From contig CAWECS010000010.1 of assembly GCA_963807455.1 (NCBI GenBank), positions 31,524 through 95,523 on the forward strand: a stretch of DNA of 64,000 nucleotides, given 5' to 3'. Positions 6,645 to 63,164 of the stretch are shown here, piece by piece. A program made the translations under genes and the position numbers. Below the pieces are notes generated by a model that ran no database searches, had not been told where the DNA came from, and was given only the letters and a program-made list of their open reading frames with translations. Numbering within the stretch: position 1 is the first letter of the stretch; every line of letters starts with the position of its first letter. This DNA is from an uncultured Gammaproteobacteria bacterium. Its GTDB lineage: Bacteria > Pseudomonadota > Gammaproteobacteria > JAADHQ01.

Positions 6645-6656
6645 CATCAGCACTAA

Positions 6657-35405: not shown

Positions 35406-35422
35406 GTCTAAATTCTTCAGAC

Positions 35423-35460
35423 AAAAAAAGCCCCGTTCAATACATGCACGGGGCTTTTCA
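35423..35460. terminator. Bidirectional rho-independent terminator between ccmI (+) and the porin (-)
   Basis: aaaaaaa-GCCCCG-ttcaatacatgca-CGGGGC-tttt. An A-tract upstream and a T-tract downstream. Coordinates approximate. Confidence 0.65.
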
Positions 35461-35474
35461 AACTATCCTTGTTT

Positions 35475-36548: not shown

Positions 36549-36579
36549 AGCAAAGCCCTTCCTCTCTATTTAATAATAG

Positions 36580-37161: not shown

Positions 37162-37177
37162 CAACTCAACCAGGTAT

Positions 37178-37963
37178 TCATGATTTATCGGTCGCCTTGC
37201 CCGCCTTCCCTTGCCATTCATCCAGCAGTTTTTGTGCCGTCTGTTTCCAGGACTCGCTCTCACTCAAATCGATAAATCGTTGCAGATCGGCGATAGCCAA
37301 CGGTTTTTTATCCATCGCATCATACACTGCAGCGCGATTGAAGTAGGGTGCCGCAACGTCAGGTTGAACTTCAATACAGGCATTGAAGTCGGCCAATGCA
37401 GACTTGTATTCGCCACTGCTGAAACGGATTGCGCCACGATTGAAATGTGCCGCCACCAGGCCAGGCTCCAGTTTCAGTGCCTGCTCAAGGTCCTTCAATG
37501 CCTCTTCTATACTGCCAAAGCTGCGATAGGCCTGGGCACGATTAACATGCAACAAGGCATTATGCGGCTCAATAGCAATGGCTGCCTCCAGATCTTGCAA
37601 TGCCATGCTGGCCTTGCCTGACTCCAACAGGAGACTGGCACGCACAGAAAGCAACTCTGCATTATTGGAATATTGCTTGATCGCCTGATCGAGAACAGCA
37701 AAGGCCTCTTGCGGCCTGCCCTCCTGGTGATGTTGCAACGCAACCAGGATGTGCTTGTCCGGCATAAGCGCGGCATGTGGATCATAGGGGCCATGTGCGC
37801 CAGAGCGTTTTTTGACAGAGGTATCAGCACCCGCCATTGCCTTGCTGACATCCATGCTTGTCGATGATGCTGTCGCGGCAGCTTTATCACCCCGGTCGCA
37901 CGCCCCTATCCCGATCATAGACACTAGTAAGAACAGCAGTGTCCAGTATGTTAATCTTTGCAT
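37178..37963 (-). CDS. TPR-repeat lipoprotein
   Basis: Lipobox LVSMIGIGAC. Five or more TPR units (...AELLSVRASLLLESGKASMALQDLEAAIAIEPHNALLHVNRAQAY...). Confidence 0.7.
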   Translation of the reverse strand: MQRLTYWTLLFLLVSMIGIGACDRGDKAAATASSTSMDVSKAMAGADTSVKKRSGAHGPYDPHAALMPDKHILVALQHHQEGRPQEAFAVLDQAIKQYSNNAELLSVRASLLLESGKASMALQDLEAAIAIEPHNALLHVNRAQAYRSFGSIEEALKDLEQALKLEPGLVAAHFNRGAIRFSSGEYKSALADFNACIEVQPDVAAPYFNRAAVYDAMDKKPLAIADLQRFIDLSESESWKQTAQKLLDEWQGKAGKATDKS

Positions 37964-37991
37964 ACCATTCCTTTCTTCTGCTTTTCAGTGT

Positions 37992-44027: not shown

Positions 44028-44084
44028 GTCTATACCTCTCAATTCTTTAAATTAATTATCTTGAAAACAATGATTCAATGCGAC

Positions 44085-44543
44085 TTAGGCAAACTGACTC
44101 ATGTCACAAGAATGAACATCATTGTCGAACAGCTTGTCGTAGGCAGCCAGATCAGCAGATGCAGCAGCAGGGCGACCGGCTTGAGGATCTGCAGAACCTT
44201 CAGCTGTTGTTCTAATCGGGAACTTAAAGCGTTTCTCGTTGCCGTTACGGAACTTGATCGTCCACATAATGGAGTTAGTTCCACGCAATGGCTGCACAGA
44301 ACCACCGAGAGGTACGATATCGGCGTAGTGACGACACTCAATTGCTTGCTGAGGACAGATCTTCACACAGGAATAACATTCCCAGCATTGTTCAGGCTCC
44401 TGGTTCCAGGCTTTCATTGCATGACCAGTTTCAGAGCCATCTTTATCAAGCTTCATCAGATCATGTGGACAGATATACATGCATGCAGTTTTGTCCTGAC
44501 CTTTACAGCCGTCACACTTGTCGGTACGTACGAATGTAGGCAT
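44085..44543 (-). CDS. aprB: Adenylylsulfate reductase beta subunit AprB (2x[4Fe-4S])
   Basis: MPTFVRTDKCDGCKGQDKTACMYICPHDLM... with two ferredoxin Cys clusters and the AprB C-terminal tail. Confidence 0.9.
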   Translation of the reverse strand: MPTFVRTDKCDGCKGQDKTACMYICPHDLMKLDKDGSETGHAMKAWNQEPEQCWECYSCVKICPQQAIECRHYADIVPLGGSVQPLRGTNSIMWTIKFRNGNEKRFKFPIRTTAEGSADPQAGRPAAASADLAAYDKLFDNDVHSCDMSQFA

Positions 44544-45012: not shown

Positions 45013-47919
45013 ATGAGCACACCTAAACCCATACACGACCCTATCACGCAACCTGCAAGTGATCGCATCGAGGTCAAAAATACTACCTGTTATATGTGCG
45101 CCTGCCGTTGTGGTATCCGCGTCACTTTGCGAGACGGTGAAGTCCGCTACATTCAGGGCAATCCTGACCACCCGCTAAATAAGGGGATTATCTGCGCCAA
45201 GGGCTCCTCCGGGATTATGAAGCAATACTCGCCTGCGCGCCTTACCAAGCCGCTACGGCGCAAGGCATCGGCAGATCGTGGTGACAATGAATTCGAGGAA
45301 ATCAGCTGGAATGAAGCCTTCTCGATCATGGAAGAGCGCCTGGCCAAGATTCGCAAGACCGACCCACGTAATTTTGCGCTGTTTACCGGCCGCGACCAGA
45401 TGCAGGCAATGACCGGACTGTTTGCCAAACAATATGGCACACCTAATTACGCGGCCCACGGCGGTTTCTGCTCGGTCAATATGGCGGCTGGTATGATCTA
45501 TACCATTGGTGGTTCCTTCTGGGAATTCGGTGGACCGGATCTGGAGCGCTCGAAGTTATTTGTCATGATCGGTACAGCCGAAGACCATCACTCCAATCCA
45601 CTGAAAATGGAACTGTCCAAGTTCAAGCGCCAGGGTGGCAAGTTTATCTCCATCAACCCGGTACGTACCGGTTACTCTGCCATTGCCGATGAATGGATTC
45701 CGATCAAGCCCGGCACCGATGGTGCGCTATTGATGGCCCTGAACCATGAAATCATCCGCACCGGTCTGTATGACCGCGAATTCCTGATCGAATACAGTAA
45801 CTCGGCAGAACTGATCAACATGGACGACAACAGCACCGAATACGGCATGTTTGTCCGTGCCGAGGTTCCGGAAGAAGAAGGCTGCTTTGATCCGCAAAAC
45901 AAACTCTGGTGGGATCGCAACACTGACAAAGCGATTGTTGCAGATCGTGCAATCGACCATGACCCTTACCTACTGGGCGAATATGCGCTTCAGGACGGTA
46001 CGCCGGTAAAGACCTCGTTCCAATTGCTGCATGAGCGCCTGGAAAAATACACCCCGGAATGGGCAGAAAATATTACCGGTATTCCTGCTGAAACCATACG
46101 ACGACTGGCACATGAAATGGGCATTACCGCCCGTGATGAAAAAATAGAATTACCGATCGCCTGGACCGATGTCTGGGGACGTGAGCATGATACCGTTACC
46201 GGTAATCCAGTCTCATTCCATGCCATGCGTGGCCTGGCTGCACATTCAAATGGTTTCCACTCGATTCGCGCACTGTCTATATTAATGAGTTTGCTCGGCA
46301 CCATTGACCGTCCCGGCGGTTTCCGTCACAAGGCACCGTTCCCACGACCGATTCCGCCTTGTGCGAAAACCCCGAAGGGACCGGAAGATGTGCAGCCGGA
46401 AACCCCTCTGAATGGCATGCCGCTGGGCTGGCCCGCCGATCCGGATGACCTGTTTGTCGATGACAAGGGTGGGCCGGTACGCCTGGACAAGGCCTTTTCA
46501 TGGGAATTCCCGCTGTCTGTGCATGGTATGATGCATAATGCGATCACCAATGCGTGGCGTGGCGACCCGTACCCGATCGACACGATGATGATTTTCATGG
46601 CCAACATGGCCTGGAACTCCAGCATGAATACCGAGCAGGTACGTGAAATGCTCAACGACAAGGATGACAACGGTGAGTACAAAATACCTTATCTGATCGT
46701 TTGTGACGCCTTCCAGTCGGAAATGGTTGCATATGCGGATCTGGTGTTACCTGATACCACGTACCTCGAACGACACGACGTCATGTCCATGCTCGATCGC
46801 CCTATCTCGGAATATGATGGTCCGGCTGATTCTGTCCGCATACCGGTAGTACCACCCACAGGCGAGTGTAAACCGTTCCAGGAAGTATTGATTGAAATGG
46901 GATCGCGCCTGAAATTACCGGCGTTTGTCAAAGAAGATGGTTCACGCAAATTCCGCGACTATCCGGATTTCGTCGTTAATTTTGAAACTGAACCGGGCTC
47001 CGGCATTGGCTTCCTGTCTGGCTGGCGTGGCAAGGGCGGCGAAAAATTCATGAAGGGCGAGCCTAATCCGAACCAGTGGGAAATGTACGAGAAAAACAAT
47101 TGCGTTTTCCATTACGAATTACCACGTTCCTTCCAGTATATGCGTAACTGGAACAAGGGTTATCTGGAATGGGCCCAGGAACATCGCCTGACGCGTTACG
47201 CCGAGCCCATTAACATTCATATCTATTCTGAAGTGTTACAGAAATTCCGCATGGCCGCGCAAGGCAAGACAGATGGTAAACAACCACCGGATCATTTGCG
47301 CAAACGCGTCGAGACCTACTTTGATCCGTTACCATTTTACTATGAGCCGCTGGAATCGCAGCTAACTGACAAACACAAGTACCCGTTGAATGCGGTCACT
47401 CAACGTCCCATGGCGATGTATCATTCCTGGGATTCACAAAATGCCTGGTTGCGACAGATCCATACCTATAATTATCTGTACGTCAACCCGGTCACTGCCA
47501 AAACACAAGGCATTGGAGATGGCGACTGGATCTGGGTTGAATCGCAATGGGGCAAGGTACGCTGCATGTGCCGCTTCACCGAAGCGCTGGAACCGGGCAC
47601 CGTCTGGACCTGGAACGCAATCGGCAAAGCCAGTGGAGCGTGGAATCTGGAACCGGATGCCAACGAATCCAAACAGGGTTTCTTGCTGAACCATGTGATC
47701 TCGGAAGAATTACCGAAGCACGATGCAGGCGAACATGTTTCCAACTCTGACCCTGTCACCGGTCAGGCTGGCTGGTATGACGTGCGCGTTCGTATATACA
47801 AGACTGAGGCCAATGAAGCGCCAGTGACCATGCCACAGTTCGATGCGGTCAAACCGGCACCCGGGCAAGCAAAACGAAAATCCTGGTTAGGTTTTTTTGC
47901 TGGCGGCAAAAAACAGTAG
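45013..47919 (+). CDS. soeA: Molybdopterin oxidoreductase catalytic subunit with no Tat signal; best fit is sulfite-oxidising enzyme SoeA
   Basis: 968 aa. N-terminal [4Fe-4S] motif CYMCACRCG with no twin-arginine leader. Followed by FeS and membrane-anchor subunits of the sizes known for SoeABC (about 108, 27 and 36 kDa). Next to aprBA. Confidence 0.65.
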   Translation: MSTPKPIHDPITQPASDRIEVKNTTCYMCACRCGIRVTLRDGEVRYIQGNPDHPLNKGIICAKGSSGIMKQYSPARLTKPLRRKASADRGDNEFEEISWNEAFSIMEERLAKIRKTDPRNFALFTGRDQMQAMTGLFAKQYGTPNYAAHGGFCSVNMAAGMIYTIGGSFWEFGGPDLERSKLFVMIGTAEDHHSNPLKMELSKFKRQGGKFISINPVRTGYSAIADEWIPIKPGTDGALLMALNHEIIRTGLYDREFLIEYSNSAELINMDDNSTEYGMFVRAEVPEEEGCFDPQNKLWWDRNTDKAIVADRAIDHDPYLLGEYALQDGTPVKTSFQLLHERLEKYTPEWAENITGIPAETIRRLAHEMGITARDEKIELPIAWTDVWGREHDTVTGNPVSFHAMRGLAAHSNGFHSIRALSILMSLLGTIDRPGGFRHKAPFPRPIPPCAKTPKGPEDVQPETPLNGMPLGWPADPDDLFVDDKGGPVRLDKAFSWEFPLSVHGMMHNAITNAWRGDPYPIDTMMIFMANMAWNSSMNTEQVREMLNDKDDNGEYKIPYLIVCDAFQSEMVAYADLVLPDTTYLERHDVMSMLDRPISEYDGPADSVRIPVVPPTGECKPFQEVLIEMGSRLKLPAFVKEDGSRKFRDYPDFVVNFETEPGSGIGFLSGWRGKGGEKFMKGEPNPNQWEMYEKNNCVFHYELPRSFQYMRNWNKGYLEWAQEHRLTRYAEPINIHIYSEVLQKFRMAAQGKTDGKQPPDHLRKRVETYFDPLPFYYEPLESQLTDKHKYPLNAVTQRPMAMYHSWDSQNAWLRQIHTYNYLYVNPVTAKTQGIGDGDWIWVESQWGKVRCMCRFTEALEPGTVWTWNAIGKASGAWNLEPDANESKQGFLLNHVISEELPKHDAGEHVSNSDPVTGQAGWYDVRVRIYKTEANEAPVTMPQFDAVKPAPGQAKRKSWLGFFAGGKKQ

Positions 47920-47986
47920 CGAGTGACTAGTGGCTAGTAGCTAGGCTCTTTCTTTCCTCGCTACTAGCTACTCGATACTAGTCACT
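47917..47986. repeat. REP-like imperfect palindromic element in the soeA-soeB spacer
   Basis: tagCGAGTGACTAGTGGCTAGTAGCTAGG ... CCTCGCTACTAGCTACtcgatACTAGTCAC. The outer 8-bp stem TGACTAGT/ACTAGTCA pairs with an inner stem GGCTAGTAGCTAGG/CCTCGCTACTAGC. Confidence 0.7.
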
Positions 47987-48023
47987 TTTATATGCAATGA
48001 AATTTTATTAGGAACTGTCAAAC

Positions 48024-48755
48024 ATGACACAACTAGCATTAGTAATAGATTTAAACGTCTGCGTCGGCTGCCATGCCTGCGTGACCAGCTGTAAGCAATG
48101 GAACACATCTGGTCCTGCCGGTGCGATGAGTGATGATAACCCTTACGGCAAGGATCCCACCGGTACTTTTTTTAACCGCGTGCAATCATTTGAAATTGGC
48201 ACTTATCCGAACACAGAGCTGGTACATTTTCCTAAAAGTTGCTTGCATTGTGAAGAGCCTCCCTGTGTACCTGTTTGCCCGACGGGTGCCAGCTACAAGC
48301 GTGAGTCCGATGGTATTGTACTGGTCGATTATGACAAGTGTATCGGCTGCAAATATTGCTCATGGGCCTGCCCTTATGGTGCCCGTGAACTGGATGAACA
48401 TGAAAAGGTCATGAAAAAATGCACCCTTTGTGTCGATCGTATTTATGATGAATCATTACCTGAATCCGAGCGCAAACCAGCCTGTGTGCTGGCCTGCCCA
48501 ACCAATGCCCGTCTGTTTGGTGATGTACATGATTCTGAATCAGAAGTATCCGTGACCATCCGTGAATCCGGTGGCTATCAGCTGATGCCTGAGTGGGGTA
48601 CCAGCCCGGCCAACCATTATCTGCCCAGACGCAAGACCAAGATCAAGATTCATGAAGATGAATTGATACGCGCAGATAATCCGTTGAAGAAAGAAGGCCA
48701 GAAACCCAAGACGATTGTTGATGGTACTACTCTGGATGATATTACCAGTTGGTAA
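48024..48755 (+). CDS. soeB: Four-cluster ferredoxin subunit of the Mo-oxidoreductase (DmsB/PsrB-like; SoeB)
   Basis: 243 aa with four Cx2Cx2Cx3CP-type motifs. Confidence 0.65.
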   Translation: MTQLALVIDLNVCVGCHACVTSCKQWNTSGPAGAMSDDNPYGKDPTGTFFNRVQSFEIGTYPNTELVHFPKSCLHCEEPPCVPVCPTGASYKRESDGIVLVDYDKCIGCKYCSWACPYGARELDEHEKVMKKCTLCVDRIYDESLPESERKPACVLACPTNARLFGDVHDSESEVSVTIRESGGYQLMPEWGTSPANHYLPRRKTKIKIHEDELIRADNPLKKEGQKPKTIVDGTTLDDITSW

Positions 48756-48761
48756 CATCAT

Positions 48762-48887
48762 CAGTAGCGAGGAACTAGTAGCTAGTGGCTAGAAAAGTCA
48801 AAAGCAAAAGTCCTCAAAATAAATTATTTATTGAATTCAACGTAGCAAATGCCTTTCCTAGACACTAGCTACTAGCAACTAGCAACT
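48762..48887. repeat. REP-like inverted repeat pair in the soeB-soeC spacer, same family
   Basis: cAGTAGCGAGGaaCTAGTAGCTAGTGGCTAG --65 nt AT-rich-- CTAGACACTAGCTACTAGCAACTAGCAACT. Confidence 0.7.
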
Positions 48888-48890
48888 GGA

Positions 48891-49880
48891 GTGAAACGAC
48901 CCATGCATCCCGCATTTTCAGTCATATTTTTAACGACACTTATCGGTGCAGGCCAGGGTCTGTTCCTGGCACTGTTCACGGCACAAAGTTATGCTGCGGT
49001 AGGTTTTGTCAGTATACAAAACCCGCATCAGTTCTACGCCTACGGCAGTGGTATTGCTTTGCTGTTATTGATTGGCGGCCTGCTGGCTTCCTTTTTTCAC
49101 CTGGGACATCCTGAACGAGCCTGGCGCTCGGCAGCCCGCTGGCGCACATCCTGGCTGTCACGAGAAGTTATCGTGCTGCCGGCATTTATGTTTTTTGTTT
49201 TTATCTATGGCGTCATGCATTTTTTCGGCTGGGATCCCATCGTTATTGATACGCAGCAACCTCTGCAGGGCCAGCTCAGTTTATATGTTGGCATTATAGG
49301 CACAGTGCTTAGCTTTGCTTTATTTATCAGTACTGCGATGATCTACGCCTGCCTGAAATTCCTGCAGGAATGGCACAGCCCGTTAACTGTCATCAATTAT
49401 ACATTACTGGGAACAGCCTCAGGATTTACACTCGCAACCGCCTATTCCGCGATCATGGCACCTGAGCTGGTGACCCTGTTTGGCACCTGGGCAACTATTA
49501 TCACTCTGACAGCACTGGTTAGTCGTAGCGCTTCACTACTACGAAATTCACGCATCAAACATAAATCCAGCCTGCAAACGGCAATTGGTGTGCGTCATAC
49601 CAGGATTGAGCAGAAAGCCATGGGACTGATGGGTGGTTCTTTCAATACCCGCGAGTTTTTCCATGGCGCAAAAATGAGTGTATTTAAATCGATAAAATGG
49701 ATATTCCTGATATTGGTTTTCCTGGTGCCGGTCATTTTACTGACTATCGGTATGAAAAGCTCTAACCTCGATATACTGATTAGCTCGTTTGTTGTTCAAT
49801 ATATCGGCTTACTGGCAGAACGCTGGTTTTTCTTTGCACAGGCAAAACACCCTCAAAACCTGTATTACGAAACAGTGTAA
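48891..49880 (+). CDS. soeC: NrfD/PsrC-family membrane anchor subunit (SoeC)
   Basis: 329 aa with about 8 TM helices. The track start is GTG 48891. ATG 48903 (MHPAFSV...), with GGAGTG upstream, is the more likely start. Confidence 0.6.
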   Translation: MKRPMHPAFSVIFLTTLIGAGQGLFLALFTAQSYAAVGFVSIQNPHQFYAYGSGIALLLLIGGLLASFFHLGHPERAWRSAARWRTSWLSREVIVLPAFMFFVFIYGVMHFFGWDPIVIDTQQPLQGQLSLYVGIIGTVLSFALFISTAMIYACLKFLQEWHSPLTVINYTLLGTASGFTLATAYSAIMAPELVTLFGTWATIITLTALVSRSASLLRNSRIKHKSSLQTAIGVRHTRIEQKAMGLMGGSFNTREFFHGAKMSVFKSIKWIFLILVFLVPVILLTIGMKSSNLDILISSFVVQYIGLLAERWFFFAQAKHPQNLYYETV

Positions 49881-52092: not shown

Positions 52093-52737
52093 TTAATTAT
52101 CGCCAGACCAGCTCATGCCTTTATGGCAATCATTACATGGACGCTTGCTATCCTCAAACTGCTTATGTAGCTTGCCATCACTATCGAAATCCGCCGGCAA
52201 TTGATGGGCGATACCCATATGACAGTCAATACAGGTCATATTCTCACTGATGGCGCGCTTGTGTTTCACATAGGATAATTTGCTTTGACTGGCCAGCGCC
52301 ATAGACTTTATGCTGTGACAATTTCGACATTCATGCGAGTCCGATTCCTGCATAGAACCCCACACATGAGTTGCCAATGTCAGACGCTTTGCCTCAAATT
52401 TCTCTTTGGTATCGATGCTACCTATAATTTTATGAAACAATTCGTTGGTCGCCTTGACCTTGCGGATAAATTTATGCGTCCATTCACGCGGCACATGACA
52501 ATCGGGACAGGTGGCTCGCACACCGGTTCGATTCTCATAATGAATGGTATTTTTGTATTCCGTGTAAACATTCTCTTTCATCTCATGACAGGATATACAA
52601 AATGCCTCCGTATTAGTCAGCTCCATGGCAGTATTGAAGCCACCCCAGAAAATGATGCCTAGAATAAAAAACAAAATTAATGCCATGACTGGATAACGCA
52701 GGTTAAAATTGAGTATTTTTTTTATAAAATTTCTCAT
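52093..52737 (-). CDS. NapC/NirT/NrfH-family membrane quinol dehydrogenase cytochrome, with five CXXCH motifs
   Basis: N-terminal TM. Motifs CISCH, CPDCH, CRNCH, CIDCH and an extra C-terminal CNDCH. 214 aa. Overlaps the upstream napF-like gene by 4 nt. Confidence 0.75.
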   Translation of the reverse strand: MRNFIKKILNFNLRYPVMALILFFILGIIFWGGFNTAMELTNTEAFCISCHEMKENVYTEYKNTIHYENRTGVRATCPDCHVPREWTHKFIRKVKATNELFHKIIGSIDTKEKFEAKRLTLATHVWGSMQESDSHECRNCHSIKSMALASQSKLSYVKHKRAISENMTCIDCHMGIAHQLPADFDSDGKLHKQFEDSKRPCNDCHKGMSWSGDN

Positions 52738-53318
52738 GATTCAGTTTTTGCCTGCAAGGAAGTGATCAATACGGCCTTAGGCTCGACAATACAGGCTTCC
52801 CTGCACAGGCCACAACCGACACAAGTGCTCTGATTAATTCTCGGCTTTTCCATTTCCCATATCAGTGTGTCCGGCAATGGACAACTTCCATAACAGGCGC
52901 CACACTCAGGTCCCGAATAAGGCAAGCAATCGGCTGTATTAATCATTGCCTTGGCCAGTAAGGGCAAAGTAATTTCATCATCCTCTTCAACATCATCTAT
53001 AAGTAGTGCCTTTGGCTCACATGCTTTCACACAAGGCCAGTCAGCACATAAGTGACAAGCCTTGTTGAGTAAATCCAATGCCGGAGTATTCACTACTTTG
53101 GCACCCAATCTGGCCTTGAGTGGAAATATCACCTGATGTGGACAAGCACTAATACATTCACCACAACGCGTACAGGTAAGCAGAAATTCCAGCTCCTCCA
53201 GCGCATAAGGAGGACGAATCCAGCGAACAGCATCGGCTTTAACTTTATCATCCGCTTCTTTTACAACTGTCTCGGTTGCTTTACTTATTGTCTGCCTGAA
53301 AAATGCTCTTCTATCCAT
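52734..53318 (-). CDS. napF: NapF-like ferredoxin-type protein (multiple 4Fe-4S)
   Basis: 194 aa with three or four Cx2Cx2Cx3CP-like motifs (CTRCGECISACP, CHLCADWPCVKACEP, CGACYGSCP, CVGCGLCREAC). Confidence 0.6.
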   Translation of the reverse strand: MDRRAFFRQTISKATETVVKEADDKVKADAVRWIRPPYALEELEFLLTCTRCGECISACPHQVIFPLKARLGAKVVNTPALDLLNKACHLCADWPCVKACEPKALLIDDVEEDDEITLPLLAKAMINTADCLPYSGPECGACYGSCPLPDTLIWEMEKPRINQSTCVGCGLCREACIVEPKAVLITSLQAKTES

Positions 53319-53391
53319 TGTTTGCCTCGTAGCCCTCTGTTTGCTCCTGATGAACCCTTGAGACTCACCACTTCGTTGCAGTAACTCACTA

Positions 53392-53462
53392 AGTAGCGAG
53401 TGGCGAGTAGCAAGGATTTAACCTGGTTTTCCTCGCTACTAGCCACTCGCCACCAGCTACTA
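53392..53462. repeat. REP-like palindromic element (same family as the soe spacers) between the napH-like and napF-like genes
   Basis: AGTAGCGAGTGGCGAGTAGCAAGG -15 nt- CCTCGCTACTAGCCACTCGCCACCAGCTACT then TTTTTT. Confidence 0.7.
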
Positions 53463-53468
53463 TTTTTT

Positions 53469-54878
53469 CTACATCCTCATCGTCATGGGCTGTGCCATTA
53501 ACCACAGGTCAAATCCATGCATTAATAATGCGAAAATAATAATCGGTAACACCCAGAGTTTACTGGTTGCGTGAAGGCTAAAGCCCCGATAACGAATCAC
53601 CTGTATCGCTAACCAGAAACCGAATAACATCAGACCAGCCTGCAACCAGAACAGCGTATCCTGCGAAATAATCATTTGCATATGACGCTGATGTTTTTCC
53701 ATCATACTTAACGGTTGTGTTCCTATGCCCAAAGGATTCAGGAACAGAGCCACAAGATCATGTGACTCCCTGACCAGGTGATTCAGGTTATGGGCAATAT
53801 GATAGGAAAATGCCAATGGCAGGGACACGAACGCCAGTGCTGAAAAAACCTGCCGGTATCGATTCCCTGCTGCCATCCATTTATTGGCCCAATACACCAG
53901 CAACGCATATATACCGATAGGTGCCAACATGATAAACAACATGCCCACACTAAAACTGAATAGTAACTGTCCCGAATCACCGACCCAGCGACCGAATTGA
54001 CTCATGCCATCGAACCAGAATGGCAACATGGTAATACCGTGAAAACTGGTCAGGGTCAGTAGACCAAGCATGAACCAGGCCTCATCCCAGCGTGGTCTTG
54101 CATCCTGCTTCACTTCGACACTCTGTGGACGCAGTTGCCAGGATATATTCTGATGCGGACAACTCTGAACACAATTGCCACAAGAGGTACAAAAGGTATT
54201 TTGTTTGAGCGTTCCCATGACCAGGTTGGTGGGGCACGGCTCGATCAGGTCGGATCCATGATAACATTCCAGTGTCTTACAATCCGCACACACATCGTGA
54301 TTAATAGGCCTCAATTCCACGGGTGCCAGCTGCGAATAATAACCTACCGTTCTCCCTACTGGACAAAAATAGTGACAAAATGCCTTGTTCTCGAATAACG
54401 CCAGGGAGATCGTTGCCATGACCACCATTAGCAATGATAGCAGTGCTGTCGCATAAGGGGCCGTGGTCACACCGACACCCAGTTCAAACCAGGTCAGCGC
54501 CATAAACATCAGCAAGGCAGGCCAGACATTGCGTAACCAGGCAGGCACTTTCAGGTTAAGACTGTTATTAGGCTTGGCCCGCTTCCATAGTCGCCGGCGT
54601 ACGAGCCAGGTGGCGATCGCATCCCATGGGCAGATGGCACACCAGGCCGAGCCCAGAAAGAAAATGACAATAATCAGACCTGCCCACCACAAATTCCAGG
54701 TCAATACCGTGGCCAGGTTTCGCTCCGGTACCTGGGTCCCCTGCAGTCCCGCGATGATCACTGTCATAAAGATAGTCACTGCCACTATTTTCAAAAACAA
54801 TAATGGCCATGGACTCGCATTCAGGAAGCGCACCAGCCATCCAATGAGCGGAATCTTGCCTAGGGACAGACTCAGCAT
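53469..54878 (-). CDS. NapH/MauN-family integral-membrane polyferredoxin, long form with an extra C-terminal membrane domain
   Basis: CxxxCP-type motifs in a membrane context (SAWCAICPW, FCHYFCPVG) plus two soluble ferredoxin motifs (CTSCGNCVQSCP). 469 aa. Confidence 0.65.
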   Translation of the reverse strand: MLSLSLGKIPLIGWLVRFLNASPWPLLFLKIVAVTIFMTVIIAGLQGTQVPERNLATVLTWNLWWAGLIIVIFFLGSAWCAICPWDAIATWLVRRRLWKRAKPNNSLNLKVPAWLRNVWPALLMFMALTWFELGVGVTTAPYATALLSLLMVVMATISLALFENKAFCHYFCPVGRTVGYYSQLAPVELRPINHDVCADCKTLECYHGSDLIEPCPTNLVMGTLKQNTFCTSCGNCVQSCPHQNISWQLRPQSVEVKQDARPRWDEAWFMLGLLTLTSFHGITMLPFWFDGMSQFGRWVGDSGQLLFSFSVGMLFIMLAPIGIYALLVYWANKWMAAGNRYRQVFSALAFVSLPLAFSYHIAHNLNHLVRESHDLVALFLNPLGIGTQPLSMMEKHQRHMQMIISQDTLFWLQAGLMLFGFWLAIQVIRYRGFSLHATSKLWVLPIIIFALLMHGFDLWLMAQPMTMRM

Positions 54879-55560
54879 GCCTTGCCTTGACAGGCACCCT
54901 GGCTAACAACGCCCATACTGATACCAGCAACATAAAGGCCCAGACCAGATAGACCAGATACTCAGGCAAGCCCGGATGGCTCATCACCATCAGGCTTTTA
55001 TCCTGCTGAGCCGTCTGTATCTTCCCTCTCAGCAAACGTTTTCTTTGTGCAATATTGACCAGCACGAGTACAGAAAAAATCGCCATCGCGGCTATACCAA
55101 TCGGACCAATGGCTGAATCCTGCCCTATCTTTAATGGAAAATCGATCGTGTAGGGCTCACCTTGCGCGTGAAAATTTGCGCTGATAATATATTTACCCGC
55201 TTCATTGATCAGAAAGCCCTGCCGGTAAACTCCATCATCAATATTCTGCGTTCCCAAAGTTTCTCGATGGCCACCGAACCAGCGATCATCACGTATTGTA
55301 AATTCGACCTGGCCATCAAATGGCTTGCCACTGTCACGATGCGTAGCATACAGATTCAAGCGCCCCTGCTTACCCGGCTCGGGAAAGGCGGGATAAACCA
55401 TGTAGGTGACGTAGTAATTACCTATCTGGGTTTCAACCTGCATACTGGGCGGGGTGTTGGAATCCTCACTCAGGCTGTAAGCAGGTCGACCGAGGACATG
55501 GTGTGCGCTAACACTGTCACTAACTAAAATTGCCATCAAGCAGATCAGTGTTCGAATCAT
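54879..55560 (-). CDS. Periplasmic protein with signal peptide and His-His motif, ending in a TM helix. Its frame runs without a stop into the napH-like gene; the 3' boundary is unresolved and a frameshifted fusion is possible.
   Basis: The track ORF 54568–55560 is protein-like only for its first ~225 aa (MIRTLICLMAILVSDSVSAHHVLGRPAYS...TM LVYLVWAFMLLVSVWALLA). The remainder overlaps the napH-like gene out of frame. Confidence 0.4.
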
Positions 55561-55631
55561 CTATTTAAAAACCTTTATGTAAATTAAATAATATTAAGCT
55601 CTGGCGCATATCATCACTTTATTTTTACCTG

Positions 55632-56264
55632 TCATCGTATCCATTTATGCCGTTGACCAGCACCATGCTTTGCTATTGTACCATCCTCACGATTGACTAC
55701 CCAGATAGGCAGACTCGGGTGGGGACAGACTTCAACACATAAACCGCAACCGACACAACCATCACGCACAACCGGCTTATAGAAATTAGCGAAATCAAAT
55801 CCGATCGCTCGATCCCCCAATGGGCATATCGCCACACAGGCACCACAGACGCCCTGATCAACCCAGGGATAACAAGCACTCTGATCGATTTGCGCAATAC
55901 CCATATCGACCTCGAGTCTTGGTGTCGGTGTCAGCGATTCTGTCGGGCATACGTCCATACATTTATCACACAGAATACAGGCCTTTTGTTCAGGATCAAT
56001 ATAGGGGGTATTGATTTTATCTCCGCCTTCACGGGTATAAAAACGGATACAACGTGGAGGGCAAACTTCACCACAGAGGCCGCAGCCAATACAGGCTGAT
56101 ATAAATGCTTGATCATCTTTCAATGCACCCGGCGGGCGTAGACGCCGACGCACATCCGCCTGTGCCGAGGGTGAAATAACCCTTGAAAAACCGAATGGCA
56201 ATGACGCCGCCAGTAGCACGACCAGGGAGCGTGCTGTTGTTGTCAGAAAACTGCGTCTTTTCAT
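55632..56264 (-). CDS. napG: NapG/MauM-family periplasmic 4x[4Fe-4S] ferredoxin with Tat signal, second copy
   Basis: MKRRSFLTTTARSLVVLLAASLP Tat leader. Four Cx2Cx2Cx3CP motifs. Confidence 0.75.
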   Translation of the reverse strand: MKRRSFLTTTARSLVVLLAASLPFGFSRVISPSAQADVRRRLRPPGALKDDQAFISACIGCGLCGEVCPPRCIRFYTREGGDKINTPYIDPEQKACILCDKCMDVCPTESLTPTPRLEVDMGIAQIDQSACYPWVDQGVCGACVAICPLGDRAIGFDFANFYKPVVRDGCVGCGLCVEVCPHPSLPIWVVNREDGTIAKHGAGQRHKWIR

Positions 56265-56278
56265 GATTGCATGCTCAA

Positions 56279-57307
56279 TTAGACGTTTTGATCCGTCGCT
56301 GTTTTTGTCTGCTCACGTTTATACGTTCTACTCAGGTGACCAGGGCCCTGATATGGCTGGTCTTTTATACCTAGTTTGAATTCAAACGCATCGGTCGGAC
56401 AAATCGCAATGCAGGCCGTGCAGTTATTACACTCTTGGCCGAAATCATCACGCAACGGGTCCAGGCCAAACTCACAGATAGCATTACACTTGGCACAATC
56501 ATTACAATCCTCGACCACACGCTGTATACGCAACAAACGAAAGCGCCCCAGAAGTGAATACAATGCCCCTCCCGGGCACAGATAACGACAGAAACCTCGC
56601 CGTGATACAAACAGATCAAATAACAGCGTGGCAAAGAAAAACACAGCGCCGGCACCAAAACCACCCAGCACCACATGACTGTAACCACCTAAAGCGATGC
56701 CATAATAAATTTCCCGCCCGACAATGGCCGGTGGATAAATAGCCGCCGTCAGCACGGCACCTGTTAATGCAGATAACACGAGTCCAACCACCAATACCAA
56801 ATACTTGAAACGGCGGTCGAGACGGCGATTACCCGTATGCAAACCCAGCTTATGTAACAAGACGGCCAGATTGGTATTCAATTCATACAAGAACGTCGCT
56901 GGACATATCCAGCCACAATAAAAACGTCCTAGTAACATCGTCAATATCAACGGTATCAAAGCGGTCAATGCAAACGGCCAATAGACTGTCATTGCGGCTG
57001 CCGTCTGCGATACGACTGCCAAAGGATCGCTTAGCTTCAATCCAAAAAATGTCCCTGACCAGGTATTACCTTTTATATTATCCAACTGTGTTTCCGGATC
57101 GGATACAAATGGCGAAGTCAGTGTCTCCATGACGGTATAGATCTGTTTCTCACCTGGGGACAACAGGTCATAGGCATGTGAGGCTATGTAGGTTTGATAC
57201 AAATGAATAAAAGGGAGTAACAACAGCATTAAAAACACGAACGTCAACACAAACCAACGTAACTTGTTTATATGACGTATATGAAAAATCTTATTCGCAG
57301 ATGACAT
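56279..57307 (-). CDS. napH: NapH-family membrane-bound quinol dehydrogenase ferredoxin
   Basis: 342 aa. Membrane CxxxCP motifs (FYCGWICPATF, FCRYLCPGGALY) plus two C-terminal 4Fe-4S motifs (CNDCAKCNAICEF, CNNCTACIAICP). Confidence 0.8.
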   Translation of the reverse strand: MSSANKIFHIRHINKLRWFVLTFVFLMLLLLPFIHLYQTYIASHAYDLLSPGEKQIYTVMETLTSPFVSDPETQLDNIKGNTWSGTFFGLKLSDPLAVVSQTAAAMTVYWPFALTALIPLILTMLLGRFYCGWICPATFLYELNTNLAVLLHKLGLHTGNRRLDRRFKYLVLVVGLVLSALTGAVLTAAIYPPAIVGREIYYGIALGGYSHVVLGGFGAGAVFFFATLLFDLFVSRRGFCRYLCPGGALYSLLGRFRLLRIQRVVEDCNDCAKCNAICEFGLDPLRDDFGQECNNCTACIAICPTDAFEFKLGIKDQPYQGPGHLSRTYKREQTKTATDQNV

Positions 57308-57356
57308 AATAATTAACTCAAGCTTTCAGCTTAACGCTGGCTGGCGGATAACATGC

Positions 57357-57935
57357 TTAACCGTAATCCGGGATGATACGAATAGCCTGGGGGATTTGAA
57401 TACATGAGCGTTCACACAAACCGCAGCCGACACAACCATCAAGCACATGCGGTTGCTCTAGCATGCCGATACGGATGGCCACGTCCTGTAACTTACAGGC
57501 ACGATAACAGACCCCGCAGGTTTTGCCTTGAAATGACAGGCACAGGGTCTCATCGACGCGCGCCTTGCCCATTTTGACCTTACTGACAATATCTTCGAAT
57601 GTCTTTTTAATCGGCTGGATAGCCCCGGATGGACACACATCTCCGCATTTCATGCACAAAATACAGGCCTTTTCACGCGGAACAATAAAGGGTGTATCCA
57701 GCACTTGAGTGCCATTGGCCAGTCCGAAATAGGTAATACAACGATTGGGACATACCTCGCCACATTGGCCACAGCGAATGCATTGTGATTGAAATTCTTC
57801 TTCAGGCAATGCACCTGGTGGGCGCAAAAAGCGGATACCCGTCTTGTTGACCCTGGCTTCGGTTACGCTTACCGGCAATGTCACCGCAAGCGCAGCGCCA
57901 TAGATCAGGTCAGCGAGAAATTGTCGTCTTTTCAT
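57357..57935 (-). CDS. napG: NapG-family periplasmic ferredoxin with Tat signal
   Basis: Start at ATG 57935 (MKRRQFLADLIYGAALAV). Four 4Fe-4S motifs. Confidence 0.8.
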   Translation of the reverse strand: MKRRQFLADLIYGAALAVTLPVSVTEARVNKTGIRFLRPPGALPEEEFQSQCIRCGQCGEVCPNRCITYFGLANGTQVLDTPFIVPREKACILCMKCGDVCPSGAIQPIKKTFEDIVSKVKMGKARVDETLCLSFQGKTCGVCYRACKLQDVAIRIGMLEQPHVLDGCVGCGLCERSCIQIPQAIRIIPDYG

Positions 57936-58030
57936 TTTAATTCCGGGACCAGAAACGAGAGACCGGGTAACAGGCAAGCCCTGTAATACAAACCTGATCC
58001 CTCGTTGCTAATACCTAGTCCCTTTGCACG

Positions 58031-60733
58031 TTAGACTTTTTCGATCCGAACAGCCAATTTCTTGAAATCCACCTGACCTGAAACGACATCCCATACACGG
58101 CTGGATGTATTGTTCACTAGCCATTTGTTCTTCTTCGGGTCAGCACTGTCAGCGACTGACAGGTTCCATGGGCTGAACATATAACCACGTGGCACGACGT
58201 TACGCGCTGGCTTAACCAAACTATCAATACCCACCTGTGCCTTGGCCTCGTAGTGGCCTCGACGGGAAATCAATCGAACCTTGTCGCCGTCCTTGATACC
58301 CAGATCCTTGGCATCATCGGGATGCATTTCAACGTACATCTCTGGCACCAGGCGGCGTGTGGTGGGGCTACGATTAGACTTGGCGGTATGGAAGTGCTCA
58401 TACACCACACCGAGTCCGAGCCAGTAAGGAAATTTATCCTTGGATACCTTATCCCATTTCTTGCCGCGTTCCTTTTCATCGGGCAGATCAGGGGTCAACC
58501 CCATATCACGTGCCTGTTTCAGCAACGGGATATTGTCGATGGTGTAGACACCCTCCTTGCTACCGAACTCCATCAGCTTTTTGGTGATCTCTTCACGTCT
58601 GCTGTAGTCCTGCAGACATAGCTTGATATGCACCTTGCCGTCCTTGGTGCGGAAGTAGCCATAGGGTTTGTTCTTCCACTGGCCTTCCTGCATCATGTAG
58701 CGACGTTTGGTGCCACCATTCTTGGCGATCTCATAGGTCGGTGCAGGCCATTGAATGCCGCGCAGATCACGTAACTGCTGATACGGTGTCTTGCCATCCA
58801 GCTTTTCAACTTCAAGCAACCCGGTCAGGTCGGTATCGGTACCTTCTGATGCCGCCACGATATCGCGGAAAATCTCCTGCGAATCATAGAAACCATCTTT
58901 CTGGCGTTTCCATGGAAAGATCTTGTCTGCGTTCAGTCCGAGCAAATGGGCGATCTCACGTCCCTTATCGATAACCATATCCATATCGGGACGACATCCT
59001 GGAGGTGGCTCAGCCGCCTTCTCGACACGATTAATGCGACGTTCGGAACTGATATAGGTACCATCTACCTCACCCCAGGTTGCGGCCGGGAAAATCACAT
59101 CGGCATACAGGTTGTTAGGGGCATGACGATAGATTTCCTGCACCACATTAAAGGTCTTCGACATCGCCGGACGAATCAGATTTTGCTGGTCTGGCAGGTC
59201 GATATGCGTTGCATACACAAACACCATCGCCTTCACATCGTCTTTCAGTGCACGCTCCATCATGCCAATGGCATACCCTGGATTTTTCGCATTCATCGCA
59301 GTAATCAGGTTCTTTTCCGGTACACGCCAATGTTTAGCCATGTGCTTACGATGTGACGCATTCTTCAGTGGTTGATTGAATGGCAGACGCCCGGTCAGAC
59401 CACCGGTAAAACGTTCACCCATCGCATTCGGTTGTCCGGTCATCGAGAACGGGCCACAACCCGGCTTGGCCAGGTTACCGGTCATGGTCAGCAGGTTAAC
59501 GATTGAAATGGTGTTGTGCTGGCCATGGATGTGCTGGTTATATCCGATACCCCACATGATGATGACACCGCCATAACCCTTGCCTTCCTGCTTACCTTTA
59601 CTACGTTCCAGACGCTTACGTGTGGCATCGGCAAACATGCCGGCGACCTTGCGAATCATCGCTGGCGAAACATCATGGCCAGGTCCACCCATGCGGTCCT
59701 GAACCTGTTCCGGGCTATAGTCTTTCAATACACCATCGGTATATTCCTTCCAGCCGGTGGTGTGCTGCTTGAGAAAATCCCAGTCAACAATGTCCTTGTG
59801 GTCCTTGAGGATGACATGTGCCAGCGAGTTCAGGAAACTGATGTCGCCATTAAGGATCGGTACATGTACCGAATTCTTTGGATTAATATCCTCATAGCCC
59901 TTGGACGTGCCGGTATATCGCGGATCAACCACCACAGTCGGGATATCTTTCTTGCGCTTGTGATCAGCCGCACGCCAGAAAATAATCGGATGCGCCTCAC
60001 GCGCATTATGACCAAAGTGCATAATCATGTCGCACAGTTCGATATCATCATAAGCCAGCGGCGGTGTATCCGAGCCCAGTGTCGCGAAATATCCGGTGAC
60101 TGCCGAGGTCATACACATACGCGCATTGGCCTCGATGGTATTGGAACCCAGCACACCCTTCATAAACAGGTTTTCCAGATACTGGCCTTCCACCGTCAAC
60201 TGACCGGAGCCATACAGAGCAATCGAGTTACCTGTATATTTTTTGGCAAGATGCGCCAGCTTGTGAGCGACCATATCAGAGGCCTTTTCATAAGGCACCC
60301 GCACAAAATGCTCTTCATCAAATGAGCCTTTGGTCTTACTGGTATATTCAAGGTTGCCATGACCCTTCTTGTTCCACTCGGCCCAGACATCCTTACGTAC
60401 ATAACTTTCGCCTTCCATACGGTCAACATAGATCGGTTCTGCCGCGGTCAGCCCCTTGATACATTGCAAACCATAGTTGGTGGGGTGATCCTTGTCCGGA
60501 CGCATGGAGACAATCTTGCCGTTCTCCGCCTGGATGATGGTGCCACAACCGACACCGCAATAAGGACATTGAGCAATAGCTGTCTTGCGTTCAGTTGATG
60601 CCTTGGCCGCACTTATTGGCGCTGCCTCAAGCTCAGGATTAGCGCCTACCATCAAACCGGCTGCACCGGCGGACCCTGTAATGAAAGCACTACTTTTTAG
60701 AAAATCTCTGCGGTTCATTTTGATACGTTTCAT
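58031..60733 (-). CDS. napA: Tat-exported molybdopterin oxidoreductase of the NapA (periplasmic nitrate reductase) family, long form
   Basis: RRDFLK Tat motif. N-terminal CPYCGVGCG cluster. NapA-type Mo-ligand context NARMCMTSA, IGYNQHIHG, PFSMTGQPNAMG. C-terminal FKKLAVRIEKV. 900 aa. Confidence 0.7.
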   Translation of the reverse strand: MKRIKMNRRDFLKSSAFITGSAGAAGLMVGANPELEAAPISAAKASTERKTAIAQCPYCGVGCGTIIQAENGKIVSMRPDKDHPTNYGLQCIKGLTAAEPIYVDRMEGESYVRKDVWAEWNKKGHGNLEYTSKTKGSFDEEHFVRVPYEKASDMVAHKLAHLAKKYTGNSIALYGSGQLTVEGQYLENLFMKGVLGSNTIEANARMCMTSAVTGYFATLGSDTPPLAYDDIELCDMIMHFGHNAREAHPIIFWRAADHKRKKDIPTVVVDPRYTGTSKGYEDINPKNSVHVPILNGDISFLNSLAHVILKDHKDIVDWDFLKQHTTGWKEYTDGVLKDYSPEQVQDRMGGPGHDVSPAMIRKVAGMFADATRKRLERSKGKQEGKGYGGVIIMWGIGYNQHIHGQHNTISIVNLLTMTGNLAKPGCGPFSMTGQPNAMGERFTGGLTGRLPFNQPLKNASHRKHMAKHWRVPEKNLITAMNAKNPGYAIGMMERALKDDVKAMVFVYATHIDLPDQQNLIRPAMSKTFNVVQEIYRHAPNNLYADVIFPAATWGEVDGTYISSERRINRVEKAAEPPPGCRPDMDMVIDKGREIAHLLGLNADKIFPWKRQKDGFYDSQEIFRDIVAASEGTDTDLTGLLEVEKLDGKTPYQQLRDLRGIQWPAPTYEIAKNGGTKRRYMMQEGQWKNKPYGYFRTKDGKVHIKLCLQDYSRREEITKKLMEFGSKEGVYTIDNIPLLKQARDMGLTPDLPDEKERGKKWDKVSKDKFPYWLGLGVVYEHFHTAKSNRSPTTRRLVPEMYVEMHPDDAKDLGIKDGDKVRLISRRGHYEAKAQVGIDSLVKPARNVVPRGYMFSPWNLSVADSADPKKNKWLVNNTSSRVWDVVSGQVDFKKLAVRIEKV

Positions 60734-60750
60734 AATCTTGATCCTTTGTC

Positions 60751-61410
60751 TTAGTGCTTGATGCTGCGCATATAGGTGATGATGTCATCAATTTCTTTAT
60801 CGGTGAGGTTAGCCATCGCTGCCGGCCCCGAGTAACCGATCATTCGAGTATTGGATCGACCGTATTTAATTGTTTGACGTATAAAGCCGTCACTGGCCTT
60901 GGTCAGGAAGCTGGCACTACCAATCGCGGTGCCGGTACCCCCTTCAAGGTAACCATCACCATTGACGCCATGACAAGTTGAACAAATCTGGTCAAACCAT
61001 AATTTACCCAGGCGCTCATCACCCAGGGCCTGCGGCTGCTTGTCTATTTGTGCTGACTGATTCGGCATTTTCTCGAAAGAACGCAGATAAGCCAGGATGG
61101 CATCAATACCACTTTTGCCAAGATGGGCAAACGGTGGCATGCCCGTGCCTGTGCGCCCATCGCGAATGGTTCCTTTGAGGAATTTGTCTGATGCCGTCGC
61201 CAGTAACTCTGGATTGGTCAATGAAGGCGCAATGCCGGCTTTACCGATGGCATCAGCCTGATGACAGAATATGCAATTCTGCTGGTAGAGTTTTTTACCC
61301 TGTTCAATGTTCGCACTGTCTTCTGCAAAAACGGCCGGCGAACTACCAACGCTGGCCAGCATGGCTAATACCAGTGTCAGGCCCTTGTTCTTCAATATAT
61401 ATTGCACGCG
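60751..61410 (-). CDS. Class I dihaem cytochrome c (c4/c553-like), first gene of the nap-like operon
   Basis: Two CXXCH (CIFCH, CSTCH), each with a downstream Met ligand. Start at GTG 61410 with a perfect AAGGAG 7 nt upstream. The track start at 61509 is unlikely. Confidence 0.7.
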   Translation of the reverse strand, partial: RVQYILKNKGLTLVLAMLASVGSSPAVFAEDSANIEQGKKLYQQNCIFCHQADAIGKAGIAPSLTNPELLATASDKFLKGTIRDGRTGTGMPPFAHLGKSGIDAILAYLRSFEKMPNQSAQIDKQPQALGDERLGKLWFDQICSTCHGVNGDGYLEGGTGTAIGSASFLTKASDGFIRQTIKYGRSNTRMIGYSGPAAMANLTDKEIDDIITYMRSIKH

Positions 61411-61926
61411 AGCGCTCCTTTTTCTTTTGTTTGAGAGATTCAATAACAGCGTGCTGTTACAGTGCGCTCGCAGACACTGCGACATATTGACGCAGGTCAA
61501 TAAACGCACTGAAAATGTGCAAACAAATCCATTTTTTGCAGCAAATCAGTGCCTGCAACTATTAACTCTGCTTAAACGTTTCACACGATCATGGATATCT
61601 GACAGGCTTTTTTAGACGATTATTTATTTTATATTCATATAGTTATACAATTTATGACTTCATATGAATAAACAAATTCCGGATTGCTTATTCGCCATAT
61701 TTATAAAGGCATTACTAATCTAATGGCAAATAGCGGATCATCCTGCCCCACTCGGCCGGCTTCCTCTGTTATAGTTCGCTCACATTATTGGCCTGACAAG
61801 ATTCGGCGAAGGTGCATGAGAACACTCCCCGCCGCAGCCATACTCTGTCATAAGCGTCAGAGAGCAGTGTTGTTACCAATAGATGCCAATAACATTACAT
61901 TTTGATATCACTAAGAGGATAGACAC

Positions 61927-63112
61927 ATGATCAAGCCTATTGGATCAGACGAACTGATGCCGTTGTTTGTTTATGACACTGATAAACATGATGCTATAAG
62001 CAAAGAAGCCGAGGGCTTGCCTTCGGTCATTATCAGTTCAGCTGCTGCGGGTAATGCCGTCATGATGGGAGGTGGTTACTTCACACCGCTGACCGGTTAC
62101 ATGAACGTTGCCGATGCGGTCAGTGTCGCTGAATACCATGAAAACCACATCTGGCCAATTCTTTCCGGTGCCGGTTTTAAACCTGGTTGAAAATGCCGAT
62201 GGCATTAAAGTCGGTAGCCGCATCGCCCTGCGTGACCCCAATGTCGATGGCAATCCTGTCATTGCCGTGCAAACAGTTGAAGCCATCGAAACCGTCACTG
62301 ATGAACAAATGGCTCACATGACCGACAAGGTCTATCGTACTGACGATATGGAACACCCTGGTGTTAACGCCTTCAATACAGTGGGCCGTATAGCTATTTC
62401 AGGCCCAATTGAGGTTCTCAACTTCAGTTACTTCAACACTGAATTCCCGGATACTTTCCGCACTGCGGTTGAAATACGCAACGAGATTATGGAACACGGC
62501 TGGAAGAAGGTCGTAGCCTTCCAGACCCGTAACCCCATGCATCTGGCTCACGAAGAACTTTGCCATATGGCCATGGAACGCCTGGGTTGTGACGGCCTGG
62601 TTATCCATATGTTACTGGGCAAGCTCAAGCCTGGCGATATCCCTGCACCTGTACGTGATGCAGCTATTCGTAAAATGGTTGAAGTCTACTTCCCGCCCAA
62701 TAGCGCCATGGTCACCGGCTACGGTTTCGACATGCTCTATGCCGGCCCACGTGAAGCAGTGTTGCATGCCTATTTCCGTCAAAATATGGGCGCAACGCAC
62801 TTTATCATTGGCCGTGATCACGCCGGTGTTGGTGATTACTATGGTGCCTTCGATGCACAAACCATCTTCGAAACTGATGTACCTGCAGGTGCGCTGGAAA
62901 TTGAAATGTTTATGGCTGACCATACTGCCTGGTCGAAGAAGTTGGACAAGGTTGTCATGATGCGCGAAGTTGACGATCACGCGAAAGAAGACTTTGTGCT
63001 CTTGTCGGGAACCAAGGTACGCGAAATGCTCGGTAATGGCGAAGCGCCACCGAAGGAATTTTCACGTCCTGAAGTAGCCAAAATATTGATTGATTATTAC
63101 CAGAGCCTATAG
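61927..63112 (+). CDS. sat: Sulfate adenylyltransferase (dissimilatory ATP sulfurylase) Sat, interrupted by a 1-nt frameshift at ~62134–62137
   Basis: Track ORFs 61927–62190 (MIKPIGSDELMPLFVYD...NAVMMGGGYFTPLTGYMNVADA...) and 62108–63112 (...GQFFPVPVL...QTRNPMHLAHEEL...GRDHAGVGDYYG...) are in different frames. Dropping one base in gaaTACCatg gives a continuous ~395-aa Sat. Confidence 0.8.
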
Positions 63113-63129: not shown

Positions 63130-63164
63130 AAAAAACAAACCCTCCTGATGGAGGGTTTGTTTTG
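63130..63164. terminator. Bidirectional rho-independent terminator between sat (+) and cheV (-)
   Basis: aaaaaa-CAAACCCTCC-tgat-GGAGGGTTTG-ttttg. Confidence 0.8.

Follow-up and report, generated by a model that had tools for sequence, protein, structure and literature searches.

The gene for ATP sulfurylase (sat) in the window, the whole 64-kb stretch of DNA analysed here, does not run through in one reading frame. This raises the question of whether the organism has lost the enzyme or whether the break lies only in the sequence as deposited, and the preliminary description had allowed for both. The sequence text does contain the split, but most likely the organism itself does not have it. 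We consider it probable that it is an insertion-type consensus error of sequencing or assembly and not a biological change.

Anatomy of the split in sat

In the window sat consists of two overlapping ORFs on the + strand, at 61927–62190 (87 aa) and 62138–63112 (324 aa). The first runs as far as ...YMNVADAVSVAEY and then adds 17 out-of-frame residues, its C-terminal end as translated being ...GYMNVADAVSVAEYHENHIWPILSGAGFKPG followed by the stop. The second, in the +1 frame, can be read to 63112 from 62108 or from the conserved ATG at 62138 (334 or 324 aa) and begins MKTTSGQFFPVPVL..., the N-terminal residues also being given as MKTTSGQFFPVPVLNLVEN.... The Pfam profile PUA_2 is divided between them, with profile positions 1–67 in the first ORF and 68–158 in the second, where the ATP-sulfurylase domain (PF01747, positions 5–211) follows. 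The NCBIfam model TIGR00339 is divided in a similar way (positions 1–65 and 68–383), with a score of 352 bits for the second ORF (cut-off 323). Past residue 70, the first ORF matched neither PUA_2 nor TIGR00339. The two ORFs are halves of one gene, broken at PUA_2 profile position 67/68.

In tblastn comparisons with four intact relatives (L082, L083, L086 and L087), the first HSP stops at 62133 and the second begins at 62135, and the DNA alignment with the relatives contains exactly one extra column in the window sat. The window reads GCT GAA TACC ATG AAA where L082 and L001 have GCT GAA ACC ATG AAA and L083 has GCC GAA TCC ATG AAA; L086 and L087, both metagenomic, have GAA ACC ATG at the junction. 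From these alignments the lesion is a single inserted base, either T62134 (ancestral codon ACC) or A62135 (ancestral codon TCC), giving a +1 shift. With the extra base, the junction in the deposited sequence reads GAATACCATG.

On the + strand, a Shine-Dalgarno-like AAGAGGA (61913–61919), read directly in the sequence, precedes the start codon of sat by 7 nt. Codons 1–69, encoding the N-terminal part of the PUA-like domain, occupy 61927–62133 in frame 1 (PUA_2, TIGR00339 and tblastn), and the extra base is at 62134–62135 (DNA alignment with L082, L001, L083, L086 and L087). Codons 70–394 and the stop, at 62135–63112 in the +1 frame, complete the PUA-like domain and encode the catalytic ATP-sulfurylase domain, as indicated by Pfam, TIGR00339 and the motifs QTRNP and GRDHAG. 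The translated tail of the first ORF, HENHIWPILSGAGFKPG and then TGA (62136–62190), is a by-product of the shift. The split had been described as falling after about 70 codons and within 62125–62165, and both statements are borne out: the ORFs, Pfam, TIGR00339 and tblastn put it at codon 69/70, and tblastn and the DNA alignment narrow the lesion to 62134–62135. The tyrosine previously given at the junction is one of three equally possible repairs; the relatives carry T (ACC) or S (TCC) at this residue.

Conservation of sat on both sides of the break

Deletion of T62134 produces a Sat of 394 aa, and an uninterrupted ORF of ~394 codons exists only after one base is removed. That one extra base accounts for the entire split favours an artefact. 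The best 120 homologues found in a protein search (392–404 residues, top identities 97, 95, 95 and 94%) are all single proteins, and most are 394 aa long. A genome scan with the repaired Sat recovered 80 related loci, nearly all of 394 codons and with protein identity of at most 90%. The gene is uninterrupted and syntenic in 79 of these 80 and in all close metagenomic relatives, and no frameshift in sat was found among the 80, which again favours an artefact. The single interrupted sat among the 80 loci, in L051 (JABURU010000115.1), has an in-frame stop at codon ~53 (...VMMGAG, then the stop, then FNPL...). Another of the loci, L021 (JABDRC010000240.1), is from a MAG labelled 'Halobacteria archaeon', and its Sat is 83% identical to that of the window; it is probably a binning contaminant.

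The repaired Sat aligns without gaps over residues 1–394 to PDB entries 1JHD (706 bits) and 4DNX (662 bits). It retains 241 of the 242 near-invariant columns (at least 97% conserved among the 120 homologues), the sole departure being I for L at residue 24. The motifs QTRNP (at residue 199) and GRDHAG (at residue 295) are present. The HRAH motif is HLAH in the window Sat, as it is in 117 of the 120 closest homologues, and is not a defect, being the majority form in the clade. The family length, the gapless alignment to the two structures and the retention of near-invariant columns all point towards an error in the consensus.

For comparison at the DNA level, L082 (97% aa and 89% nt identity within sat), L083 and L001 were used, and later L086 and L087. 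Against L082 the dN/dS of sat (Nei-Gojobori) is 0.022 overall, 0.033 for codons 1–70 and 0.020 for codons 71–394; comparison with L083 and L001 gave similar figures. Adjacent intact genes have dN/dS of 0.03–0.16, and that of the molybdenum enzyme near sat is 0.027. There are no internal stops and no second lesion in either part of sat. Neither half has drifted. The one lesion apart, sat is under the strongest purifying selection, and the low dN/dS on both sides of the break is a further reason to favour an artefact. The raised dN/dS and several lesions of a degraded pseudogene are not seen. The two-domain order of the Sat family, an N-terminal PUA-like domain and then the ATP-sulfurylase domain, is found across the two ORFs, and the catalytic motifs QTRNPxH and GRDHAG are in place with the near-invariant residues; the only family feature missing from the gene as written is a single ORF of ~394 codons. 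The gene encodes an unremarkable Sat, the dissimilatory-type ATP sulfurylase found in sulfur-oxidizing Gammaproteobacteria.

The ATG at 62138 lies exactly at the junction and opens a 324-aa ORF that contains the whole catalytic domain. The shift could on this account be real and the function rescued, either by translation of the second ORF alone or by non-covalent assembly of the two pieces, the working enzyme then having its first 70 residues missing or on a separate chain. We regard this as highly unlikely. No ribosome-binding motif precedes 62138, and the stop of the first ORF, 50 nt downstream of the ATG, makes a poor arrangement for coupling. The break also cuts through the PUA-like beta-barrel domain (at profile position 67/68 of 159), which all homologues have and which the solved structures, aligned over residues 1–394, include.

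Gene neighbourhood and sulfur-oxidation context

Divergent from sat, on its upstream side, are genes for a 900-aa molybdenum enzyme and a dihaem cytochrome c, and this synteny is common to the relatives. They belong to a conserved cluster (52093–61509 on the - strand, corresponding to L083 254–9344) that is syntenic with sat across several related species. The molybdenum enzyme of this cluster is a Mo-bisPGD protein with a TAT signal that is NapA-like but far under the NapA cut-offs, and the cluster also encodes several Fe-S and membrane proteins and a NapC/NirT-type cytochrome. Just past the sat stop, folding revealed a terminator-like 14-bp hairpin (63132–63163, +) shared with a convergent cheV-like gene; in L082, cheV is likewise convergent and downstream of sat. 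The hairpin has a folding energy of -25.3 kcal/mol (z = -6.6), and none of 200 shuffled sequences was equally stable; a simple terminator scan did not call it.

In the relatives, genes for a PPi-dependent phosphofructokinase, an H+-translocating pyrophosphatase and a soluble pyrophosphatase lie a few kb from sat (L082 7426–11852, L083 15783–20223); the window ends short of the corresponding region. In sulfur oxidizers, Sat converts APS (from AprBA) and pyrophosphate to sulfate and ATP. The neighbourhood of PPi enzymes in the relatives is in keeping with the need for pyrophosphate when Sat runs from APS to ATP.

The AprBA and SoeABC context that had been claimed for sat is present in the window. 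The aprB and aprA genes (42096–44543, -) are intact, with scores of 941.7 bits for TIGR02061 (cut-off 641.75) and 193.6 bits for TIGR02060 (cut-off 135.65). Adjoining them is a soeABC-like trio (45013–49880, +) that, from Pfam and NCBIfam matches, encodes a 968-aa Mo-bisPGD protein, a 243-aa Fe-S protein and a 329-aa DmsC-type anchor. The model libraries hold no dedicated Soe model, and the name is given because a cytoplasmic trio of this composition is consistent with SoeABC. No second sat was found in the 64-kb window. The retention of the RBS-like motif, of the strong hairpin after the stop and of the partner genes aprBA also favours an artefact.

A separate block of the window (35475–40397, -; L088 10001–14923) encodes an 801-aa ExtM/MtrC-like multihaem cytochrome, a TPR protein, a small protein and a porin. 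Over 4.9 kb the block matches L088 at 87% identity without gaps, and it resembles an electron conduit of the outer membrane, here in a sulfur oxidizer.

The alternative with most to be said for it is that the frameshift is real and very recent in the sampled strain or population, with Sat inactivated, sulfite oxidized by the SoeABC-like enzyme and the other splits described below being real pseudogenes. This is possible, and we hold it to be doubtful. The lesion does stand in the deposited sequence, and the loss would be tolerable, as genetic work in Allochromatium vinosum found the APS route to be dispensable when SoeABC is present; for the same reason, the earlier description of sat as a core gene was overstated. 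Against it, aprBA is still intact, all relatives have an intact sat, and neither a second lesion nor any relaxation of constraint is seen in the gene, with dN/dS of about 0.02 in both halves and only one near-invariant column changed. The earlier inference that Soe would be left as the remaining sulfite route would follow if the shift were real, but the evidence favours an artefact. Were the shift real, APS from AprBA would no longer be converted by Sat to sulfate and ATP, and the locus would be a natural knock-out in which a SoeABC-type enzyme alone carries sulfite oxidation while aprBA is kept, a modest but useful data point.

Other one-base splits in the window

Further split genes were sought by eye and with codon statistics, and then by comparison with relatives (L083, L086 and L087 for 52–64 kb, L088 for 30–40 and 44–50 kb, and L089 for 2–17 kb). 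Ab initio codon-usage scans for frame switches flagged sat and an oxidoreductase gene and were too noisy for the cytochromes, for which relatives were therefore used instead. Besides sat, five certain +1 one-base splits and one probable stop loss were found in the 64 kb. Several other suspected splits (1856/2860, 22068/23018, 36580/37178, 40681/41716 and 50072/51856) proved to be ordinary neighbouring genes or shadow ORFs.

Two of the splits are in adjacent genes for multihaem cytochromes (5087–8247, +), the repaired products of which have 518 aa with ~21 CxxCH motifs and 529 aa with ~18. In the first (5087–6644), the inserted base is at 5807, with tblastn HSPs against L089 meeting at 5806|5808 and the window reading GAC[G]ATT as against GAT-ATT; the closest homologue, P0151, is a single protein of 518 aa, the repaired length. 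In the second (6657–8247), the insertion is at 7281 (HSPs 7280|7282 against an uninterrupted L089 ORF). Here the window has GCCTGC[T]TCTACC where three in-frame copies of its own 138-nt repeat have GCCTGCTCTACC or similar. This cytochrome is made up of tandem 46-aa (138-nt) repeats (CSTCHNGTTATGK...CDDCH...AWIPARFDH), and its relative in L089, with a 713-codon ORF, has more copies of the repeat.

The third split is in a psiE-like gene (12568–12966, +), where alignment with L089 shows GG extended to GGG (TGG[G]ATA) at 12608–12610. This gene has a second lesion, a nonsense TAA at 12737–12739 where L089 has GAA. It is 95% identical to L089 in DNA over the 200 nt aligned, and its dN/dS of 0.096 is like that of its neighbours. 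In contrast to the genes with a single lesion, this one may truly have become a pseudogene in recent time.

The remaining two certain splits are on the - strand. In a ferredoxin/FAD oxidoreductase gene (28166–26870), positions 1–93 and 106–282 of Pyr_redox_3 fall in different frames, which puts the +1 shift at 27363–27388; for this gene the split was located from Pfam alone. Directly downstream of it, 25102–26898 (-) encodes a 598-aa protein with Sel1 and many ankyrin repeats, a protein type that is unusual in a free-living gammaproteobacterium. In the gene for a 506-aa membrane Fe-S protein (54990–53469), comparison with L083 and L086 puts the shift at 54866–54877 (~54872), with residues 1–38 in one frame and 42–506 in the next. 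The probable case, also on the - strand, is a 190-aa gene (54990–55560) that lacks a stop where L083 and L086 have one. At 54990–54997 an extra C (~54995) gives AGC[C]TGATG, as against the overlapping TAATG in L083; an extra base is probable here, the other possibility being a natural fusion.

With sat, the frame-breaking indels in the 64 kb come to six certain and one probable, every one an insertion; this amounts to ~1 per 9 kb, with about one gene in eight (about 12%) hit. Wherever a relative was available, the orthologues of the split genes are intact in the closest relatives. Relatives allowed ~36 kb of coding sequence to be compared, and in it no -1 event was found, nor any further in-frame stop in a real gene. 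The one-base lesion of sat is thus repeated in at least five nearby genes, and that five or six further conserved genes of the assembly have a lesion of the same +1 type is a reason to favour an artefact. The suggestion that an artefactual split would calibrate the indel error of the assembly has accordingly been followed through, and the figure of ~1 per 9 kb is the result.

The direction of the events bears on both readings. Natural bacterial indels are biased towards deletions, and a two-sided sign test for insertions only gives p ~0.03 for six events and 0.016 for seven. Six certain insertions and no deletions are a poor fit to bacterial mutation spectra and speak against a real frameshift in sat; that all events are insertions favours a consensus error. 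No transposase or IS element was found in the window, nor a large deletion or anything else that would indicate genome decay, which likewise favours an artefact and is hard to reconcile with ~12% of the genes in 64 kb being broken by natural mutation. The psiE-like gene, with its nonsense codon as well as its frameshift, pulls the other way. Its two lesions are independent, and an insertion-only error model leaves the nonsense codon unexplained; at least one real pseudogene may therefore exist in the window, and this raises the prior for real frameshifts. The sat site is also outside a homopolymer, the commonest context of technical indels, and this counts against an artefact and in favour of a real frameshift.

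No convincing sequence motif is common to the insertion sites, and the six or seven sites share no four-base codon. Collapse of a T/A polymorphism into an extra base was considered, as the relatives have ACC or TCC at the sat site and the repeats of the second cytochrome have TGC or TGT; these two sites fit, the others do not, and the idea was rejected.

All the splits are +1 and the frames downstream of them are perfectly conserved, as would also be predicted if the shifts were programmed or tolerated, the ribosome shifting +1 at GAA-U-ACC or RNA polymerase slipping, and likewise at the other +1 sites, with full-length Sat still produced from the gene as written. Recoding of this kind is nevertheless extremely unlikely. 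The shift is conserved in no relative, and the six or seven sites have no four-base codon or motif in common. The sat site, GAA UAC CAU, includes no in-frame stop and no known hungry or slippery codon, the nearest stop in the 0 frame being 18 codons downstream. There is no Shine-Dalgarno-like stimulator within 40 nt (AGGA, GGAG and GAGG are absent from 62100–62195) and no homopolymer of 5 or more near the site, where the longest run is A4 at 62141–62144. Rescue and recoding taken together are very unlikely. We find it scarcely credible that the seven insertions are all genuine with full-length proteins made by genome-wide +1 recoding in a free-living, sulfur-oxidizing gammaproteobacterium or, in a milder form, that they are real and mark an ongoing burst of gene inactivation in which a sulfur oxidizer with Apr, Sat and Soe has just lost Sat.

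Search for independent copies

Contigs of the Logan collection from run ERR12040029 include two, L090 and L091, from the same species as the window. L091 corresponds to window 55393–57620 at 100% identity. L090 corresponds to 33426–36203 at 99.82% without gaps, with 5 mismatches in 2778 bp, four of them synonymous and one changing L to V. The mismatches resemble true polymorphism and bear the mark of real strain variation, so that substitutions in the window appear accurate and co-occurring strains exist. This supports a real frameshift to some extent and counts against an artefact, as the substitutions look biological and not noisy; L090 and L091 span no frameshift site.

The split products of 87, 324 and 268 aa are on record solely from the source contig although ERR12040029 holds the same organism, which weakly favours an artefact; the contigs in Logan are of short length and contain few of the proteins encoded in the window. 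In that run, neither the 218-aa cytochrome beside sat nor the 268-aa piece of the split oxidoreductase is on record. The evidence is similarly weak from six variants of the repaired Sat and four repaired cytochromes, none of which an exact look-up found in the collection, and from a protein search centred on the junction, which found no conspecific fragment. A tolerant DNA pattern across the junction detected two contigs in JGI metagenomes, with 81–84% DNA identity, both intact. The closest sequences spanning the sat junction are just 81–89% identical in DNA, and no conspecific copy was found, a point against the artefact reading. No relevant report of a frameshift in sat was found in the literature.

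Consequences for the assembly and its metabolism

We infer a technical origin for the lesions from the evidence above, and on this reading the organism would have an intact 394-aa Sat and its AprBA-Sat branch would work beside SoeABC. In metabolic reconstruction, Sat, the two multihaem cytochromes, the Fe-S membrane protein and the oxidoreductase should not be scored as absent or truncated. The split in sat is best handled as a frameshift that annotation should repair. The main value of the observation is as a quality flag, since gene calls across the assembly need frameshift-aware annotation or re-polishing.

Comparison with known systems

After repair, the window Sat has the same two domains and motifs as the dissimilatory-type homo-oligomeric Sat enzymes of known structure, those of the Riftia pachyptila symbiont (1JHD) and Allochromatium vinosum (4DNX), and its genome also carries aprBA and a soeABC-like cluster. 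The gene differs from these in the +1 interruption after codon 69.

Programmed +1 frameshifting of the prfB type resembles the case of sat only in the +1 direction and the intact downstream frame. Unlike prfB, the window sat has no conserved shift, no site of the CUU-UGA type and no upstream Shine-Dalgarno stimulator. Rescue by transcriptional slippage, as at poly-A tracts in endosymbionts, needs a homopolymer of ~9 or more, whereas the longest near the sat site is A4.

Frameshift artefacts of long-read or low-coverage consensus sequences are the problem targeted by length-ratio checks of the IDEEL type. The window shares with the indel-split genes of error-prone assemblies the single-base indels in conserved genes, several per 64 kb and uniform in direction, with intact relatives. 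It differs from that class in that several insertions, including that in sat, are outside homopolymers and in that substitutions appear accurate. The phenomenon matches the known class of indel-split genes, and not programmed frameshifting, slippage rescue or an eroded pseudogene.
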